A DNA stretch of 64,000 nt from a virus. Its lineage: Duplodnaviria > Caudoviricetes. The position numbers and the translations under genes are program-made. Under the pieces are notes generated by a model. The model worked only from the letters and a program-made list of their open reading frames with translations, made no database searches and was not told the origin of the DNA. Below, piece after piece: positions 5,172-63,900 of this stretch (position 1 is its first letter; the number at the start of each line of letters is the position of its first letter). The DNA is taken from IMG/VR virus record IMGVR_UViG_3300032007_000017; one strand, given 5' to 3'.

Positions 5172-7334
5172 ATGAGTAGATATGCAGAAATGAGACTAGC
5201 TAAATCTATGCCTGAAATAGTTCCTGATACAAACTTTAAAGGAATTTATAAGGACAATTTAGCAGTCAAGAATTATCGAGAATCTGCTATTGAATGTCTT
5301 CAGCTATATTTTCCTGAATTGAATATAACTGAAATCTCGTATGGTGTCGATAGAGCTATTGCTGAGAATATCAAGTATCACAAAGCTACTATCGATAATT
5401 CATATAAGAAACAAACAGTAGAGACAACTATACCTGAATTAGCACACTATATTTTATCTAAGAAGCCTATCATGACTACCTATGGATGTTTATTTACTCA
5501 GCATGCTGAGGTACCACATCCATTCTACTACATGGTAGATAACTTCATCAACCAGCGCGATGTAGTGAAGAAAGAAATGTTTAAACATCCGAAAGGATCG
5601 TTTGACTTTCAGAAGTATTCACTACTTCAGCTACTGTATAAGCTTGACGCGAATGCATTCTATGGTGCAATCGGTATGCCGAGCTGCTTCTATTATAACT
5701 TCTATACTGCGGCTTCTGTTACAGCTCAAGGTAGAAGTCTTAATAGTGCAATGGCATTGTTCTTTGAGATGTTTCTCGATAACAATGTCCCGTTTGGAAG
5801 TCTAAATGAGGTAGTTACATTTATTCAGCATACGATTCACGATTCTTATAGTATCGATGATCATATGATTCTGAATCATGTACCTGGGCCTCAGGAAACT
5901 TTCTATAAGATTATCACTTCCTGTGGATTCAATTATGTCCCCTCTGAAGAGGATATGATGATCTTATGGAAAATGATTAATCAATTAGATCAGCCCGAAC
6001 TCAATAGGCTTTATTATCGTAATAATCTCTATGAGTTCTGTGATAATGTCTATGTATCCGATCTGATTGTAAGAATCCTTTGTAAGCTTGATAGTGAGTG
6101 GGGAGACTCGAATAAAGTTCCCGAAGAAGTTAAACCCGAAGTCTCTGAGCTTCTCGACTTACTGAGAGAGTATGTCTTTTATAATCATCAGATTATCGAT
6201 AGACTGGATAAGATGGAGAAGTTAATTCGTTCCGTCAGTATTATCCAAGATACCGATAGTGCTATAGTTTCGTATGATGCTTTCTATCGTTTCGTACTTC
6301 CCAAGACTAATGGGATTGATATGAAGATTAAGAGAACAGAGTACAACTATATCACTGAAAAGACTGAACCTGTAACTTATGATATCAAGGATTATGACTT
6401 TGGCAATGATGAAGTCATTGAACTTGAGAGAATGAGAAATCCGTTTGTGGTAATTCCTCAAGATCAACTTCGTCACTCCATTCTGTCAATTCTTGCACAT
6501 TGTATCTCTAAGTTGCTGAATGAGTATATGTATTCATATACTAAAAATTCTCAAGCATTTATTCCAGCAAATGAAAACTATCCTATTCCTAAGAATATGC
6601 AATGCTTGATCTTTGCGAAGACAGAGTTCTTAATGAAGCGAGTATTACTCACTGATGCTAAGAAGCATTATGGATCTAATATTGAGCTTCAAGAGGGAAA
6701 CTATGTTCCGAAGAGTGAAGCACTTGATACCAAAGGAATGGATGCATTCAATAAGTCCACTTCTAATGATGCTATTAAAGAGAGACTGAAGAAAGTTCTC
6801 TTTAATGAGATTCTTGATACTCCTGCAATTGAGCAGGTTAAAGTGATCAAAGCTCTTGCCATTATTGAAAAAGAAATATTCGATTCTATTCATAGTGGCA
6901 AGAAGGAATTCTATAAACCTGCAAAGGTAAAATCCAAAGCAGCTTATGGAGATCCTATGAGAATCCAAGGTATTAAAGCAAGTATTGCTTATAATGCTTT
7001 GCATCAAGATGGAACAGAAACACTAGACTTAGATCAACGAAATTCTATCGATATTGCAAAGTGCGATATCAATCTGAAGAATATCGGTAGGATTAAAGAA
7101 GATTTTCCTGATGTATATGAAAAGGCAGTTAAATTCTTGACTGACAATAAGTATTATGCAACAGGAATTGAGTCTATAGCAATTCCGATCAATGAGCCTG
7201 TTCCTCAGTGGTTATTACCATTTATCGCTTATGAGACAATCATCAGTGATAATGTAGGTAACTTCCCGCTTGAGTCTATTGGTATCATTCGCGGTAATCC
7301 AAACAACAATAAATCCAATATCGTACGATTCTAA
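5172..7334 (+). CDS. polB: Family B DNA polymerase, C-terminal part (motifs B and C) of a split enzyme
   Basis: QLLYKLDANAFYG (motif B), TAASVTAQGR, QDTDS (motif C), KKHY; lacks exonuclease and motif A. Confidence 0.88.
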   Translation: MSRYAEMRLAKSMPEIVPDTNFKGIYKDNLAVKNYRESAIECLQLYFPELNITEISYGVDRAIAENIKYHKATIDNSYKKQTVETTIPELAHYILSKKPIMTTYGCLFTQHAEVPHPFYYMVDNFINQRDVVKKEMFKHPKGSFDFQKYSLLQLLYKLDANAFYGAIGMPSCFYYNFYTAASVTAQGRSLNSAMALFFEMFLDNNVPFGSLNEVVTFIQHTIHDSYSIDDHMILNHVPGPQETFYKIITSCGFNYVPSEEDMMILWKMINQLDQPELNRLYYRNNLYEFCDNVYVSDLIVRILCKLDSEWGDSNKVPEEVKPEVSELLDLLREYVFYNHQIIDRLDKMEKLIRSVSIIQDTDSAIVSYDAFYRFVLPKTNGIDMKIKRTEYNYITEKTEPVTYDIKDYDFGNDEVIELERMRNPFVVIPQDQLRHSILSILAHCISKLLNEYMYSYTKNSQAFIPANENYPIPKNMQCLIFAKTEFLMKRVLLTDAKKHYGSNIELQEGNYVPKSEALDTKGMDAFNKSTSNDAIKERLKKVLFNEILDTPAIEQVKVIKALAIIEKEIFDSIHSGKKEFYKPAKVKSKAAYGDPMRIQGIKASIAYNALHQDGTETLDLDQRNSIDIAKCDINLKNIGRIKEDFPDVYEKAVKFLTDNKYYATGIESIAIPINEPVPQWLLPFIAYETIISDNVGNFPLESIGIIRGNPNNNKSNIVRF

Positions 7335-39681: not shown

Positions 39682-42600
39682 TCATTTCATAGCTTTTCCA
39701 ACAGCATTAATTGTTTGCAAAGTTCCATATGAAACCTGTTGATTGTTTTCTATAATAGCCTTTGCAAGTGCTGCTTCCTCATTATGACGATCAGTATCAC
39801 GTATCTGATTAATACGTTCAATCATTTCGTCCTGAGAAATATCAAACTCAAGCGGAGATCTCAAGAAAGGATACTTATACTTTCTATTGAACTCTGCCCT
39901 CTCCATAACTGCTTCATGATCAACATATTCACCATCCTGATATTCAATAAACGGATGATAATAGGTCTTATCAGAAGCAAAGAACTTAAAGGGATTTCTA
40001 AGGAAAGGTTGAGCTTTGATTTTAGGAATCTTCATGAACTTAAGAGCTAATCCAATTGTCTTTAGATAAGTCGAAAGGATTTCAGCTCCAATGTTTCGTG
40101 AATTGTTTTCAAGTTGAATGTCTACATTATATGGGTTGTTTGTCATTGCAGATTCACAAAGCATTCTAGCTTCAGGAGAAGAAGAATACAACATGAGAAC
40201 CTGAATTACCAAGTCAATACCCATATGGCTCAGATCACCTAATTCCATGTCTCCGAATCTAATCGGAGTTCTAGAGAATTGAGCCTTGTATACTTTACTA
40301 GCCTTATTACGACTATTCTCATTCTTGATATTAGTTGCAGAAAGACTAGTAACTGAGAATTTCTCTTCTGCATGCTGCTTCAATCTATAATAATACACAT
40401 ATCCGCAGACAACAGGACGACGAGAAGTGACATATCTAATATTTCCGTTGGAGTCTTCAAGAGGCATAAGAATATGCTCTTGCTGAATCCAAGGAAATGC
40501 GTGTTGTAAAGCTCTGATAGTCTCCAAAGAAGGAGTATCAGTGCCAGGATCTACATTGATATACAGCATTCCATCATCAATGATACTACTGATATATTGG
40601 GCAACTGTATCATCAGAAGCATTAGAGATAAACTCAGAAAGTACCTGATATTCTTTAGGAGATACAATCTGATAGAATGTCAGAATATTTCTGATATTAT
40701 CTTCAATACTACTAAATTCATTGCATAATGATTTTACGATATTTTTAGCCTTATGTGTGTAAGACAGTTCAAATAGCTGACCGCCATTTTCACGTCCGTA
40801 TACCATATTTTACAAATTATAATATTATAATTTATAAAATCTTTATCTATATTCGTTAGATATAGATATAGTCATATAGACTATCTCATACTTTCATATG
40901 AGTGGAGATCATTTGTTCATCCTATTTCTAGGAGTCGGATTTTTCGAACTCACTTAAGTCCTACTCTCCCGCAAGGAGATGACCGTTGAACCTTCACCAT
41001 TTTACAGGTGAGTGGCTGCTAAACACCCATTTACTATCATTTAGGATTTGACCATGTGATAATCCTAATCTCTTTTTTCTGCTTTCGCAACTATCACGCT
41101 TACTGTTTCCAGTTACGTTGTAGTGGATTAGGCTTTAGGGTTTCAAAGCAATTAACCCGAAGTACTTGCATATTACTATACAAGCAGTGCATACTTTAAT
41201 TTACACCACACATATTGACTTGAATATCAACAACTTCACCGTCATAGGTTTTAGGCATCAGATTATCGGGTTTAACCCTAGAAATGACACCTTTACCCCC
41301 ATAGCGGTTGGTCAACTTGTCGCCAGCACACGCTTTGATATTTTCAACAACGGTAATGGTGATTACAGTACCGGAGAATACCCTCTCATTCAAGAACTTA
41401 TCACCTTTCAGCTCTGCTTGACAATTGCTGTAAAGCTTCTGAAGGTCATAAGTCATAGATACATGAGATCCATCTCCACGATATTGATCTACTACATCAA
41501 CAATTTCTTGGCACATACGCATATGCTCTGCATGATACCTAGCAATCTGTTGATAGTAGATCTCATCAAAGACTTCAGGATTATTACATTGCACATCAAT
41601 ATCGACTACTTTACCAAAGACGGTAATCTTCTCGTCAGACATAAATGCAGTAGACAATCTATTGAAGTCTTGAGAATAGAATGCTTCTTCTTTTTTCTCT
41701 TTGCGAACAGCACAGAGAATATCATCTTTTGTCATCTCTCCAATATCAGGAAAGATCTTATAATTATTTGCATCGCCAAAGAGATTCAAAGGAATATCAT
41801 TTACGTTGAAAGTGATATTAAACTTATGGATCAAAGGAGATGCAAGCTTTTCAGAGGCTGATTCAGAGATAATGATAGAGTCTTCCATTGTCTCTTCAGA
41901 AGCATTGAAGAGAACGAGAAGATTCTTACCATCCATTCTGTTATTGTATTCATCAAATGCTCTTGATTTGTGAAGAACGGTTCCCTTAGGAACCCCTCCT
42001 CCAACTACAATAGCATCAAGCTCTGTATTATCATTGATGTATCCAAATGTTTCAGTAATATGCTGATATTCGGATCTTTCAATAACATCAAGCTTTTTAC
42101 CACTCTCATCTAAGAGAATGATATAGTAGTGATCATAAGGACGAGAACTATACTTAGGAATAATTCCTACTGCAGTATAATCCTGATCTGCTATTCTAAA
42201 AGAAGATGAATACTGACCAAACTGATTTTCAAAACCAGTAGATACATAGGGGACATCTGGATTACATAATGCCAATCTCTGCTCAAGGTTAGTTGAGAAC
42301 ATTAACTTCCGCACCATATTCTATAGTATTGTAAAATACTCTAGTTCCTAGTTCACTGAATCCCTACTAGTTTAATACTAGATTTCTTATACTAATATTT
42401 CCGGAAGTTACACAAAAATACTAATATAAGAGCGGAATTCTCCGAAGGCTTAAACTCCCATGTATGGATCATGGTACATAAACACAGCAAAGTATAGAGA
42501 ACTCTTTACTTATTTATGCTATGTCTTTAAGTAAGAGTGTTTCTCTTCCCTCGGAAGTAACTAGGGGTTGTTGATATGCCAAATTCCGTAAATTATAAGC

Positions 42601-44269
42601 GGCATTAAGGTCTCGATCTTCTGTATATCCACAAATTGGGCATACAAAAGTTCTATAGCCATTAATATAGTAACCCTTAGATCCACAATGACTACATTGT
42701 TTTGAAGATGGAAAATATTTATTAGCAGTAATGACAGGAATATTTCTCCACCTAGCTTTATACTTTAGCTGACGATGTATTTCACAATACATCATTTGAT
42801 CATTATATGATCGTAAAGCATAATTATTGTGAAGCTGTTCATTAACAGAAATCGACTCGATTACTATTGCTTCTGGATTTCTATCAACAATTTCTTTTGT
42901 GGCTTTATTGATGTCATTTTTGCGTATATTTACCATCTTTTTAATGAGCTTAAGGCGTTTATTTTTTCGCTTATAATGATTTATAGATTTTGGCACATCC
43001 TCGTACTTGGTTCTCGTAGCGAGTCTGATCTTATTATACTTTTCATAATCCTTACTTAATCTACGATCTAATTTTCTTCTACGTTGCTCAAGCTTTGATG
43101 TATCAGTAAATTTGTAGAATTTACCATATGAAGTTGTGATCATATTTATAAGTCCTACATCAATACCAACAGGTTCAGTTTTTGGTTTATCTTCCATAGA
43201 AATATGTGTTTTATCATAATTTTCATATGAAGCCCCAAACCAAAAATTCAATCCATCATAATGAACTGAACAACGATAGAATTTGGTTCCTTTAGGAATT
43301 TGATGATCTTTTGCAAGTACCTTCAAATCCTTAATACCAGAAATGCTAATATAATCTCCTATAACCCTAGTTCTATCGTGTCTAGGAGAAAAAGACCTGG
43401 ATTTATATTCATTTTTTCTAGACTTAAACTTTGGGTATCTGTTTGGATTCGATTTATCAAAAAATCCTTGGAATGCTTTATCTAGATGGTCAAGGGTTTC
43501 TCTCATACATCCAACAGTTGATTCCTTAAGCCATTTATATCTAGAATCATGATTCCGCATATTAGCAAATTTTGTTATTAGATCATAGTAGCTAATGTAT
43601 GGATTTCCATCAGCATGATTATTATTTTGTATCTCAAGACCAAGATTATAGATAGCTCTAGCCAATTGAATTTGGCGCATAAGCTGTTTTGCTTGCTCTT
43701 CTGTAGGATAGAGCTTAATTCTGACGCCTACAAGATTTTCCTCATTTACATTAGGTGGTTTTCGACCCATCGAATACACCTCCTTTCTATAATGATTTAC
43801 ATATTAGTACGATGAATATTATTTTACAATACTTTCGAACACCTTTGTCTATATTCGCAACTTATAGACCCTTTCGGCTCATACTTTCATATGAGTGGAG
43901 ATCATTTGTTCATCCTATTTCTAGGAGTCGGATTTTTCTTCCACCATAAGCTTGTGGTTCTACTCTCCCGCAAGGAGATGATCGTTGAACCTTCACCATG
44001 CTAATCGTTTAGGTGAGTGGCTGCTAAACATCCCAATCTCTATACTTTTTATATCCATCACGCTTATCGTTTCCAATTACGTTGTGGATATAGAGCTCTA
44101 AGGGATATGTCAAAGCAATTAACCCGAAGTACTTATAGATTACTCTATAAGCAGTGCGCTATACACCGGAGTTTGTGCAGTTGAATGGCATTAAGGTTCC
44201 TTTACCAAAAAGATGTTCTGGTGTAGGAAGTGGTGCATTTCTAATCTGTTCTACAAGTTCACTTGCCAT
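39682..44269 (-). CDS. rpoB: RNA polymerase beta-like subunit, C-terminal half, in three exons (44269-44165, 42314-41205, 40803-39682; about 778 aa spliced)
   Basis: Joining restores LMPFNCTNSG|VRKLMF (cf. LIPFLEHDDANRALM) and NMCG|VYGRENGGQ (cf. NPLGVPSRMNIGQ); also GDKLTNRYGGKGV, YYYRLKQ, RFGDME. Confidence 0.9.
40804..41204 (-). ncRNA. Group I intron, ORF-less (401 nt; boundaries can slide 2 nt)
   Basis: P (TTAATTGC), Q (TTTAGCAGC), P7 GGTCA/TGATC, P3 TCGGGTT/AATCCGA, P9 CTCATAT-GAAA-GTATGAG; removal restores frame. Confidence 0.88.
42315..42500 (-). ncRNA. Putative omega-RNA scaffold
   Basis: ATGTACC...GGGAGTTTAAGCCTTCGGAG...GATTCAGTGAACTAGGAA between tnpB stop and element end resembles Firmicutes tnpB right ends (recalled, not searched). 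Confidence 0.65.
42514..43770 (-). CDS. tnpB: TnpB RNA-guided endonuclease
   Basis: HTH IKLYPTEEQ, RuvC-I GIDVG, RuvC-II VIE, Zn finger CSHCG...CPICG, RuvC-III DRDLNAAYNL; ATG 43770 after AAGGAGG. Confidence 0.93.
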   Translation of the reverse strand: MGRKPPNVNEENLVGVRIKLYPTEEQAKQLMRQIQLARAIYNLGLEIQNNNHADGNPYISYYDLITKFANMRNHDSRYKWLKESTVGCMRETLDHLDKAFQGFFDKSNPNRYPKFKSRKNEYKSRSFSPRHDRTRVIGDYISISGIKDLKVLAKDHQIPKGTKFYRCSVHYDGLNFWFGASYENYDKTHISMEDKPKTEPVGIDVGLINMITTSYGKFYKFTDTSKLEQRRRKLDRRLSKDYEKYNKIRLATRTKYEDVPKSINHYKRKNKRLKLIKKMVNIRKNDINKATKEIVDRNPEAIVIESISVNEQLHNNYALRSYNDQMMYCEIHRQLKYKARWRNIPVITANKYFPSSKQCSHCGSKGYYINGYRTFVCPICGYTEDRDLNAAYNLRNLAYQQPLVTSEGRETLLLKDIA

Positions 44270-44387
44270 GATTTATTCCTCCTTCATGTATTGTGCAGTT
44301 GAATGGCATTAAGGTTCCTTTACCAAAAAGATGTTCTGGTGTAGGAAGTGGTGCGCTTCTAATCTGTTCTACAAGTTCACTTGCCAT
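44173..44387 (-). repeat. Tandem duplication (about 97 bp) of beta-C exon 1; upstream copy is a dead-end 42-aa ORF
   Basis: 44291-44387 vs 44173-44269 identical except codon AGC/AAT. Confidence 0.95.
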
Positions 44388-44471
44388 AATGAAATCTCTC
44401 CTTACATGTGTGCGTCATTTAAGAAGAAGCCAGTCTAGAAATGTGTCTATTTCTAGACTGGCTTTTGATTA

Positions 44472-60737: not shown

Positions 60738-60939
60738 AATTTTAGATAACTCCTTTGCTAGTTTCAATCTTATGTTTATTCATCATTTAAAGAGCGATGT
60801 CAGAAACTCTGATATTGTAATAATGAAATTCATATAATCACCTCAATATAATAATATCCAACTGAAAGACATATTATTATTATGAGAGTTTATGACCCTT
60901 TAAACATTTGATTAGCAATAACACAAGGAGTTGAAACTA

Positions 60940-63900
60940 ATGGCTGATAAAAAGAAAGTGAATCAAACCGATTTCAAATCCAATATTGAAAACTATTATG
61001 ACGAATTTAAGTCATATGAAACTTTCGCTGATGCTGTGCGTCATTTGCCAGGCAACTATTTAGGAGCCATCGGAAATACTGGATGGAAAGCAATGGTTCG
61101 AGAAATATTTCAGAATGCTACAGATGAGGCTATTAAAAATGAATCCCCATGCAATTATGTCATTCTGAAATATAATGAGAGTGATCAGTCTGCAGAAGTT
61201 ATTGATAATGGTCGTGGTATTCCGCATAATCACATTATCGATATCTATACATCTGCACATGTATCGACTAATTTTATCGAATCGAAAAAGCTATACGAAT
61301 ATTCCTCTGGTGCACATGGCGTCGGCGGTGGCGTTGCAATGGCATTGTCTGAATTCATGTCCATTGAATCTTCTGTCCTAGGTGTATGCCATCGAGTAGA
61401 GTTCAATAGAGGTATTCCTTGGAAATATGGAGAAAAGAAAGTCAAGTCTGATATCCAACAGGGTACCAGAATATTTCTGACTCCTGATAGAGATATTGTG
61501 GGTCAAACTAATCTTACTTCTGATGAAGTATTGAATGGATTAGTTCTAAAAATCTTCCCACTGATTCCCATTGGATATACTATCGAGTATATTGGTACTA
61601 GATATGATGGATCAGTAGATCATCAGATTCTTACCAATAAAGATGGTATCATGTTCAATCTGAATAAGAAGGTTGCAAAACCCCTTATTCATCCGATTGA
61701 AATCTTTGAAGACAATGGCACCATGAAGTTCCATGCTGTATTTACCTATGATCCTACAGCTATGGAAGACTCCGAAGATATCGATGCATTTGCAAACTAT
61801 ACGCCTTGCGTGGGCGTGAATCAAACGAAGTTCTTAGAAGCTCTTTGTTCATTCTTCACTCAGTATATGAATAAGATCTTCTTAAAAAATCAGAAGATTA
61901 CTGTTACTCAGGCTGATATTAAGACTGGTCTTAAAGCAGTAGTTGATGCTGCACATTTGCATCCAATTTTCGAAGGACAAGGTAAAGTGGCAATCAATAA
62001 TCCTGACTTAGGAAAGTTCATTTATGATCTTACCAAAAAGTCTCTCGAGAATTGGGCAAAGGTTAATCCTACTGAGCTTGCTAGACTCTGTAAATACTTT
62101 AAAGATATTGCAGAGATCAGGTCTAAGCTTGAGAATGGAAAGACCAAGCTTAGTAATCAATATGCAAAGTCTATAATTTCTGGTGATCCTGAAAAGTATT
62201 TGAAAGCCTCCGGCAAGAAAGGTGTAGAGCTCTATATAGTCGAGGGAGATTCAGCATTTGGATCTGCTCGTTCTGGTAGAGATCCAGTACACAATGCCGT
62301 ATTCCCCATACGTGGTAAGATCCTTAATGTATTTGGCAAGGTTAAATCAGAGGTTTTCAAGAATCAAGAAATAGCATCGATTACCAAAATTATTACAGGT
62401 CTTGATCATTATGATAAAGACTTCGATCCTGCAAAATCTAGATTTGATAAGATTATATTTATGGCTGATGCCGATCCGGATAAATATGTGTTGCTGTCCG
62501 GCCCAGTGGTGACACTGGTGAACAAAATCCCTTTAATTGCTGGAAACTCCTTACATCAAGCAAACTACAACGTGGCTAGCAATAGCGAGCGTGAATGTTT
62601 GAAAATTGCTTGATTTGGACAATCAGCAGCTAAGACCAATTATAATACCACTATTTAAAGAAAGGAGTATAAAATATGTATTATCCATTTATAAGAAATG
62701 ATATACAGTGGAAACCAATAACTGATGATATGGTACCAAATATAGAAAAAGATAGATATCTGATTTCTAATGCTGGTACGATATACGATAAATTACAAGA
62801 TAAAATACTAAGTGTCCATAATTGTGGCGAAGGATATTTAAGTGTATCTCTTGCAACTATTGATGAATCTGGTTTAAGACACCGTAAAGGAATGCTTGTC
62901 CATCGTTTAGTTGGAATGGCATTTATTGATGGTGATTGGAATAAACAGATTAATCATAAAGATGGAGATAAAGTTTATTGTGAAGAAGAAAATCTAGAGT
63001 GGGTTACACCAAGAGAAAATTTAATGCACGCTTTAGATATGGGTCTTCATAAATCCGGCGGAGATAGAATAACGTCACATTTGACAAATGAACAAGCCGT
63101 TATTGTTAAACAAGACTTAGCTAATAGAATGACTATTAGCCAGATACTAAATCACATAGGTCTTGAAGATAATAAAAGAAATAGGGGTTTGATCATTGAT
63201 ATTAAACGTGGAAAAACGTATACTAGAGTGGGCACCGATATATCATATTCTGTCGAAAAATTATGTGAACGAAGACTAGATAGAAATACTGTAATACAGA
63301 TATGCGAATATATGCAAGCAAATCCGAATATTACATATGGCTATTATAGTAGACTTATTGATATGCTTGGGATACCTTGCTATAATCAAGAAGAGCGTTC
63401 AATGATTAGAAGTATGATAGGTAGTATTTATCGTAGAAAAGCATATACTGATATATCTAAAAATTATAATTGGTAAAGTTCAGAGACTATCGAAATGGCG
63501 AATAATATTCGTACAGAGTAGAGTAGGATTGTATGATTGCATAAGTTGCTCTAAATTTATGCAATCATATGATTCGAAATGGGGGACTCTCATATATGTA
63601 TATGAGATGAAGATATAGTCCAACCGCCTGAAAGGGTAAACACATTCGATCTCTTCTTTGTAGACTCTTCGTCGTGTATTTTCCGAAATTCATTGAAGCT
63701 GGAAAAGTATATGCTGCTGTACCTCCTCTCTTTGGTCTATATCAAGGAGGTAAAGTAGTACAGTACTTTACTGACAATAATGAAGTATCTAGATACGTGA
63801 AAGATCAGTTTACAAAAAGATATGAGCTTAGAGATAAAGATACTGGTAAGAAGCTTACTAGTAATGATATCATTAAGCTCTTCTCTACAAATCTAGATTA

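Follow-up and report, generated by a model that had tools for sequence, protein, structure and literature searches.

A putative TnpA-less IStron in an RNA polymerase gene of an uncultured jumbo phage and its possible spread as an RNA-guided homing intron

An intron-like element interrupts an RNA polymerase gene

We analyzed a 64,000-nucleotide (nt) window of a 178-kb IMG/VR virus record (IMGVR_UViG_3300032007_000017; 72% complete) in which the gene for an RNA polymerase (RNAP) beta-like protein is interrupted by a 1850-nt element. Its sequence features identify the element as a TnpA-less IStron of an uncultured jumbo phage, that is, a tnpB-bearing group I intron with an omega-RNA scaffold. All coordinates are window positions, and every gene in the RNAP region lies on the minus strand (Table 1). 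The sequence-only reading of this DNA had placed the element at 42315-44164; the element itself stands, with its ends shifted by 1 nt in the register that we prefer.

Removing the element and a second, smaller intron of the same gene in silico produced a single open reading frame (ORF) of 778 aa with zero internal stops. The sequence created by joining exons 1 and 2 (...NCTNSGVRKLMFSTNLEQ..., or over a longer stretch ...MPFNCTNSGVRKLMFSTNLEQ...) is uninterrupted in the intron-less homologues L006, L011, L012 and L115 (P0122; 83% identity), and both intron sites are read through without a break in intron-less relatives. In the spliced RNA, the predicted junction is ...CCGGUG followed by UGCGGAAG..., and the insertion point (site 1) falls in a conserved motif of beta subunits (...NSGxRKLMF.TNLEQ). 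The ribozyme core at the 5' end of the element would excise all 1850 nt from the RNAP beta mRNA, so that the essential gene would stay functional through splicing. In other relatives, the RNAP beta gene of this phage group is interrupted at several more positions. Proteins of 365-371 aa that we considered as products of alleles occupied at site 1 were rejected, as they are N-terminal pieces cut at other intron sites.

Table 1. Features of the interrupted RNAP beta-like gene and its introns, in window coordinates.
Feature	Position	Strand	Description or evidence
Exon 1, RNAP beta-like (C-terminal part) gene	44164..44269	-	106 nt = 35 codons + 1 nt; 3' end GGUG
Exon 2, RNAP beta-like gene	41204..42313	-	Pfam Rpb2_6 match
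Exon 3, RNAP beta-like gene	39682..40802	-	In-silico joining of exons 1, 2 and 3
Whole element, putative 1850-nt group I intron (site 1)	42314..44163	-	Register uncertain by 1-2 nt
Group I ribozyme core, P1 to P9	43878..44163	-	RF00028 alignment, core homology, P1 covariation
Terminal stem, 5' strand	43820..43839	-	Inverted repeat I3, 20 nt, 90% complementary
tnpB	42514..43770	-	418 aa from ATG; 421 aa from upstream GTG
Omega-RNA scaffold	42314..42480	-	Conserved blocks, covariation
Terminal stem, 3' strand	42319..42338	-	Between omega scaffold blocks and 3' splice site
Second intron of the same family and gene (site 2)	40803..41203	-	401 nt, no ORF
Tandem duplicate of exon 1	44291..44390	-	97% identical in coding part

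A group I ribozyme core at the 5' end

Alignment of the RF00028 model to positions 43878-44174 (minus strand) gave an end-to-end match of 24.8 bits (E = 2.4e-5 per genome and 2.2e-4 per region). This match was obtained solely in a narrow or whole-genome Infernal pass; Rfam scans at the gathering threshold, and with E up to 10 on 2.7 kb, returned zero group I matches. The core has an internal guide sequence, GCACU, at 44153-44157 and an insertion of the P7.1/P7.2 type. Its P3-P8 region is approximately 80% identical over 105-112 nt both to CbISt3, an IStron of Clostridium phage c-st, and to introns of Twort-like Staphylococcus phages. Further, the core is homologous (73-85%) to the 401-nt insertion at site 2, to a third copy in the genome and to the sequences that precede every related tnpB. 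The last exon bases pair with the internal guide sequence to form P1, four pairs of which are kept in 8/8 family members, with compensatory changes at two positions in three loci. Because of the P3-P8 identity, the homology of the core across the family and the compensated P1 pairing, we regard the group I assignment, already proposed in the sequence-only reading, as safe on sequence grounds. From the same features we infer that the 1850-nt intron is spliced.

By the rules of group I introns, exon 1 ends in U, which forms a U.G wobble, and the last intron base is G. Because a 2-nt repeat is present at either end of the intron, three registers yield identical mRNA. We prefer the register in which the intron reads U...GG, and exon 1 then ends in G, because it keeps both the terminal G and a G-C junction pair as in the group B (IS607-type) IStrons, for which such a pair has been reported (PMC13565253). 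Family members that have C as the first base of exon 2 were used to probe the register, and the evidence was split: the DNA polymerase motif and the phage's own empty site in that gene (GGTGC, window position 5658) point to U...GG, the L098 homologue to the other register. A register based on an IS607-style GG crossover was rejected, as it broke the reading frame.

TnpB and its RNA scaffold are nested in the last helix of the intron

TnpB is the ancestor of Cas12. The tnpB gene of the element is preceded, at a distance of 8 nt, by a strong Shine-Dalgarno sequence, and its product matched the Pfam families HTH_OrfB_IS605, OrfB_IS605 and Cas12f1-like TNB above their cut-offs, the NCBIfam model guided_TnpB with 185 bits, likewise above its cut-off, and solved TnpB structures. 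The RuvC triad (D207, E308 and D390), whose three acidic residues had been recognized from the sequence alone, and the four cysteines of a CxxC...CxxC zinc finger show no variation across 48 aligned sequences. The genome record holds a single tnpB copy. As the sequence-only reading had claimed, tnpA is lacking: neither Y1 tnpA (PF01797) nor serine tnpA (PF00239) had a match in the 178-kb, 72%-complete record, and the gap of approximately 100 nt between core and tnpB has no space for one. Nor was tnpA present in any of the eight element loci, and the related loci also lack the space.

Downstream of tnpB, the scaffold begins with a nexus hairpin (42458-42474) whose loop, CCAUA, occupies 42463-42467. 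A long covarying stem around a variable branch follows, then a GAAYUAGGAAYU block (GAACUAGGAACU in the window), a linker and the terminal UAUGG (42314-42318). RNAalifold identified compensatory pairs, three of which fall in the nexus stem and several in the long one. The CCAUA loop can pair with the UAUGG that forms the last five bases of the intron, and both are invariant in the family; the resulting nexus pseudoknot covaries between families only. Other TnpB elements retrieved by a motif search have the same complementarity of loop and end with different bases. The conservation and covariation of these blocks bear out the earlier description of an omega-RNA-like segment that ends at the 3' splice site. 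Comparison of the 3' tail of the element with the phage collection produced no match. A GC-richer TnpB element with the same omega-RNA blocks is found in four JGI metagenome contigs (L106, L107, L108 and L112), where one fixed end sequence adjoins three different flanks. This is the multi-copy pattern expected of an ordinary transposing insertion sequence (IS), unlike that of the phage family.

The two strands of the terminal stem lie far apart, the 5' strand just upstream of the ribosome site of tnpB, so the long-range stem encloses both tnpB and the omega scaffold. Although the strand sequences vary, their complementarity is kept in all 7 TnpB-bearing elements, whose cognate strands form duplexes with a mean of -17.7 kcal/mol versus -6.8 kcal/mol for non-cognate combinations. 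In the ORF-less sibling intron the same helix is a simple small hairpin. Thus, tnpB and its RNA occupy the terminal loop of the last helix of the intron.

The family occupies several phage genes and shows signs of recent mobility

TnpB relatives in IMG/VR did not exceed 33% identity and the GenBank phage collection had no close relatives of the region; close relatives came from ENA and Logan metagenome assemblies alone. The six loci that we fetched encode TnpB proteins with 47-58% identity, in contigs of 8 to 257 kb, the largest of which (124-257 kb) have the size of jumbo phages. These contigs have the RecA-like/RNAP/ligase gene order of this phage or carry other phage replication genes. In 6/6 cases the same core precedes tnpB, and the element lies within a gene, on that gene's coding strand: at site 2 of RNAP beta in L011 and L012, in a divergent DNA polymerase gene in L093 and L095, and in two further genes in L096 and L098. 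The TnpB of L011 is 76-77% identical to those at the DNA polymerase site and 70% identical to that of L012, which shares its site. TnpB similarity does not follow the site; therefore, new sites have been colonized.

Two further relatives, L007 and L008, carry an identical TnpB protein at the same site as the window. Between the window and L007, the 3' part of the intron with tnpB differs at 3/1571 bases and exon 2 at 41/1110 (Fisher p = 4e-13), while exon 3 and the ligase gene are 96-98% identical. Hence, between these two strains the flanking exon has diverged some 20 times more than the element. A coding element so much less diverged than its flanks is what recent homing would leave behind, and the sequences are best explained by recent lateral transfer of the intron to the same site in diverged phage genomes.

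The 401-nt intron at site 2 shares stretches of 40 nt (97.5%) and 61 nt (100%) with the tnpB intron. It is missing from L007 and L008, strains that are 96-98% identical, in which an empty site 2 is seen, and in L011 and L012 the site is occupied by a TnpB-bearing copy. These states are consistent with the classical cycle in which an intron invades, loses its nuclease and is finally lost itself. Downstream of site 2, the first 100 nt contain 14 differences from L007, which looks like a co-conversion tract brought in with the ORF-less intron. We also compared the flank of site 2 in the window and in loci L007, L006, L115, L011 and L012. Just after the intron (40790-40802 in the window), 3/3 occupied alleles read TAC GGN; 3/3 distinct empty alleles (four loci) read TAT GG, like the UAUGG at the intron's 3' end. 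With this synonymous difference, a cryptic 3' splice site may be eliminated; alternatively, it may just reflect donor sequence brought in by co-conversion.

Other introns and a duplication accompany the family in this genome. The third copy (C1:48640-49052, minus strand) is outside the window, beside the DxDGD catalytic motif of a beta'-like gene. Approximately 250 nt from it is a different group I intron (C1:49297-49519, minus strand; RF00028, 93.7 bits), which we considered as a family member and rejected, the family intron being the separate one at approximately C1:48640-49052. Across the introns of C1 48640-49519, the end of the upstream exon looks like a copy, since diverged, of the start of the downstream exon. 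On the plus strand of the window, a gyrB-like gene (60931-62613) is followed by a region (62614-63673) with an HNH_3/NUMOD4 endonuclease ORF (62676-63476) that is flanked by weak group I matches at approximately 62515-62621 and 63588-63638; it corresponds to the HNH intron named in the sequence-only reading. A tandem duplication with a period of 118 nt affects exon 1 of the RNAP beta-like gene. The upstream copy has its own, different ribosome-site region and is missing the final 8 nt of the exon; its 42-aa ORF (44259-44387) stops 11 nt beyond the real start codon. None of the intron-less relatives L011, L012 and L115 has the duplication, which may be the scar of an aberrant recombination that delivered the intron or a coupling leader.

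A predicted guide, target motif and homing cycle

In CboIStron, an IStron dissected experimentally, the scaffold terminates in the nexus pseudoknot, which overlaps the 3' splice site and has the guide immediately behind it (PMC10690162). Because the nexus pseudoknot described here abuts the intron end as in CboIStron and in the c-st IStron, by analogy exon 2 should supply the guide from its first bases. As predicted guide and target we take the first 16-20 nt of this exon (UGCGGAAGUUAAUGUU...); allowing up to 2 mismatches, the 16-nt guide sequence has no second occurrence in the genome. On the other side of the element, the 5' flank is GGTGT or GGCGT in 7/8 family copies, representing 4/5 independent sites (the exception, L096, has GGCAT), which makes GGYG(T) a candidate transposon-adjacent motif (TAM). 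The G at position -5 is conserved at 5/5 sites and is unpaired in P1 in 6/8 elements, suggesting a constraint beyond P1. Site 1 of L011, L012 and L006 has no GGYG motif. The sequence-only reading had assigned the guide to exon 2 and the TAM to the end of exon 1, and the comparison supports both assignments through the CCAUA:UAUGG complementarity, the geometry shared with c-st and CboIStron and the GGYG flank.

We infer from these features a cycle of omega-RNA production, cleavage and homing. Transcripts that escape splicing would yield an omega-RNA composed of the scaffold, as far as the 3' splice site, plus 16-20 nt of exon 2 as guide. Cutting by the TnpB-omega-RNA complex would be confined to DNA that joins a GGYG-type motif (the end of exon 1) directly to the exon-2 guide sequence, and the cleavable target would be the intron-less allele of a co-infecting related phage. 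Repair off the intron-bearing genome would then copy the intron into the cut allele. In the occupied allele the target is preceded by AUAUGG and not by GGYG; we propose that this allele is immune because AUAUGG, which is not a TAM, precedes the target. The phage's own DNA polymerase gene (window 5658-5678, plus strand; motif ...FYGAIGM...) is uninterrupted at the position where L093 and L095 carry TnpB introns. Here, GGTG precedes a stretch that departs from the L095 guide at about three positions, which makes the site a near-target for a competitor's element.

Weighing homing against alternative explanations

Taken together, the in-frame position in an essential gene, the conserved nuclease and scaffold, and the divergence pattern make it probable that the element is a TnpA-less IStron in phage RNAP beta that spreads as an RNA-guided homing intron. 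Several observations weigh against this reading. Looking for empty alleles in relatives, as the sequence-only reading had proposed, was rewarded at site 2 (L007 and L008) and with relatives that lack the site-1 intron; no natural empty site-1 allele matching the guide was found, nor any intron-less site-1 allele of the same species. The nearest intron-less allele, in L115 (83% aa identity), has a GGCG flank but departs from the guide at 3-4 of the first 18 nt, with two of these mismatches close to the TAM. No single register combines the two group I splice-site features: the register with the U.G wobble gives the intron a pyrimidine end, and the one with the terminal G leaves exon 1 ending in G. 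The RF00028 score is below the gathering score of 50. The hairpin adjacent to the guide is not local, as a 24-33 nt linker is present and the partner strand lies 1.5 kb upstream of it, before tnpB; the mature omega-RNA may, as a result, differ from known omega-RNAs. The comparison contigs start inside the intron, probably owing to exact repeats among the intron copies, and the divergence test covers the exon-2 side only. Finally, the genome record is incomplete.

Ordinary transposition could account for part of the data. The element could be a non-autonomous IStron mobilized by TnpA acting in trans, from the host or from the unsequenced part of the phage, with TnpB only restoring the element after excision. 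Consistent with this, the family occupies at least five sites in different genes, the similarity of its TnpB proteins does not follow the site, the GGYG flank and the GG element end recall those of IS607-type elements (PMC13565253), and a tnpA could lie in the missing part of the record. We nonetheless consider it unlikely, since tnpA is lacking from the record and from the eight element loci, each genome has one tnpB copy, and all copies are in frame, on the coding strand and in conserved motifs of essential phage genes. Furthermore, an identical element sits at an identical site in diverged strains, and its junctions match neither the group A (TTGAT/TCAG) nor the group B (GG/CGG) ends. Also improbable is that TnpB no longer acts on DNA and serves as a splicing regulator, a maturase-like RNA binder or an RNA-guided repressor, the intron having been inherited by vertical descent with ordinary recombination. 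Such a role has a precedent in CboIStron, where TnpB binding represses splicing independently of the nuclease site (PMC10690162), and would agree with the lack of a matching target allele. Yet neither the RuvC D-E-D triad nor the zinc finger varies among 48 relatives, and the near-identity of the element in diverged strains points to active spread.

It is marginally less probable again that the module of tnpB and scaffold is itself the mobile unit, with the 3' strand of the terminal stem as its guide, and that it invades the ORF-less introns of the family. The module does sit exactly in the loop of a hairpin that is intact in the ORF-less sibling, possible ORF-less targets exist in the same genome, and the last strongly conserved scaffold block stops 24-33 nt before the splice site. 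The complement of the nexus loop is, however, at the very end of the intron and not before the stem strand; in known omega-RNAs the guide comes immediately after the pseudoknot strand (PMC10690162). An identical geometry is seen at the mapped right end of the c-st IStron, and no conserved TAM-like motif is present at the left edge of the module. The least probable of the alternatives, to which we give very little credence, is that no splicing takes place and tnpB merely split the RNAP gene, leaving the 35-codon upstream piece as a relic. It draws on an Rfam score under the gathering threshold and on the fact that RNAP subunits of jumbo phages are often split. Against it, exon 1 holds part of a universally conserved beta motif and continues in frame into exon 2, the P1 helix and the core show conservation with covariation, and the ORF-less sibling at site 2 would then disrupt the gene too.

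RNA-guided homing may also have a broader consequence, which we advance tentatively and with more doubt than confidence: a self-retargeting homing system in phage-phage competition, whose guide is whatever exon follows the intron. If so, a rare landing beside a GGYG motif would instantly create a new homing specificity, which would explain why one lineage is found in RNAP beta (two sites), DNA polymerase and other essential genes of jumbo phages. The ORF-less copies, such as that at site 2, would be immunity alleles that part the TAM from the target and shield the genome against a competitor's TnpB. The final bases of the intron would be contested between the long-range terminal stem and the nexus pseudoknot, which would balance splicing against guide production.

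RNA-guided homing of TnpA-less IStrons has so far been a proposal only (PMC13565253). The phage family described here provides a natural test set, with one intron lineage that carries TnpB, lacks it or is absent at defined sites of essential genes, and with a predicted TAM and guide for each site. If the proposal is true, RNA-guided nucleases took over the niche of homing endonucleases in virulent phages and influence marker exclusion between co-infecting phages. The compact TnpB/omega-RNA pairs, with their G-rich candidate TAM, are in addition ordinary candidates for characterization as genome-editing tools.

Comparison with known IStrons and homing introns

The novelty ascribed to the element in the sequence-only reading was overstated. 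IStrons in Clostridium botulinum phages and IStrons with only ORF-B, hence TnpA-less, were already published (PMC4227781), the conflict between omega-RNA and intron has been dissected in CboIStron (PMC10690162), and a 2026 review proposes that TnpA-less IStrons could spread via intron homing (PMC13565253). Our literature search retrieved no paper describing TnpA-less IStrons in essential genes of jumbo phages.

The nearest known elements are the group B IStrons BcISt1, CboIStron and CbISt3/CbISt4 (C. botulinum phages c-st and D-1873; PMC4227781, PMC10690162). They have the same order of a 5' group I core, tnpB and an omega-RNA whose 3' end is the 3' splice site. CbISt3 shares the scaffold blocks in addition to its core (80% identical over P3-P8), and its nexus loop, CGAUAC, is complementary to a GUAUCG that lies one base from the mapped right end, the counterpart of CCAUA:UAUGG here. 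A G-rich flank, a GG element end and, in the preferred register, the pairing of the exon 1 G with a C of the internal guide sequence are also common to both. The differences are equally clear. The phage element has no serine tnpA or remnant of one, its TnpB is just 28-30% identical, and its ends are GGYG/UAUGG instead of (A/T)GGG/CGG. The guide-adjacent helix, a local hairpin in group B, is here a long-range stem across tnpB. The setting differs as well, being a jumbo phage of the virulent type with insertions in essential genes, ORF-less siblings and a homing-like population pattern. The group A (IS200/IS605-type) IStrons of Clostridioides difficile (CdISt1/CdiIStrons) likewise combine a Twort-like group I intron with TnpB and omega-RNA, and many of their copies are without a full tnpA, as here. 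Unlike the phage element, group A elements insert after TTGAT, ATTAT or TTTAT, end in TCAG, retain fragments of Y1 tnpA and are multi-copy in bacterial chromosomes.

In its way of life, the element resembles the homing-endonuclease introns of phages, such as T4 td/I-TevI, those of Twort and SPO1, and the HNH intron in the gyrB gene of this phage. Both types carry a nuclease gene in a peripheral loop of the ribozyme, interrupt conserved motifs of essential genes, have ORF-less and empty alleles in relatives and show a divergence pattern that hints at recent lateral spread. New here are the ends of the lineage, which fall outside groups A and B, a TnpB nested in a long-range terminal stem, the set of TnpB-bearing, ORF-less and empty alleles, and a quantitative signature of divergence. 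Homing endonucleases recognize their target through the protein; in the phage IStron the target is predicted to be read by an RNA guide from the downstream exon together with a short TAM, and such specificity would reset itself at each new insertion site.

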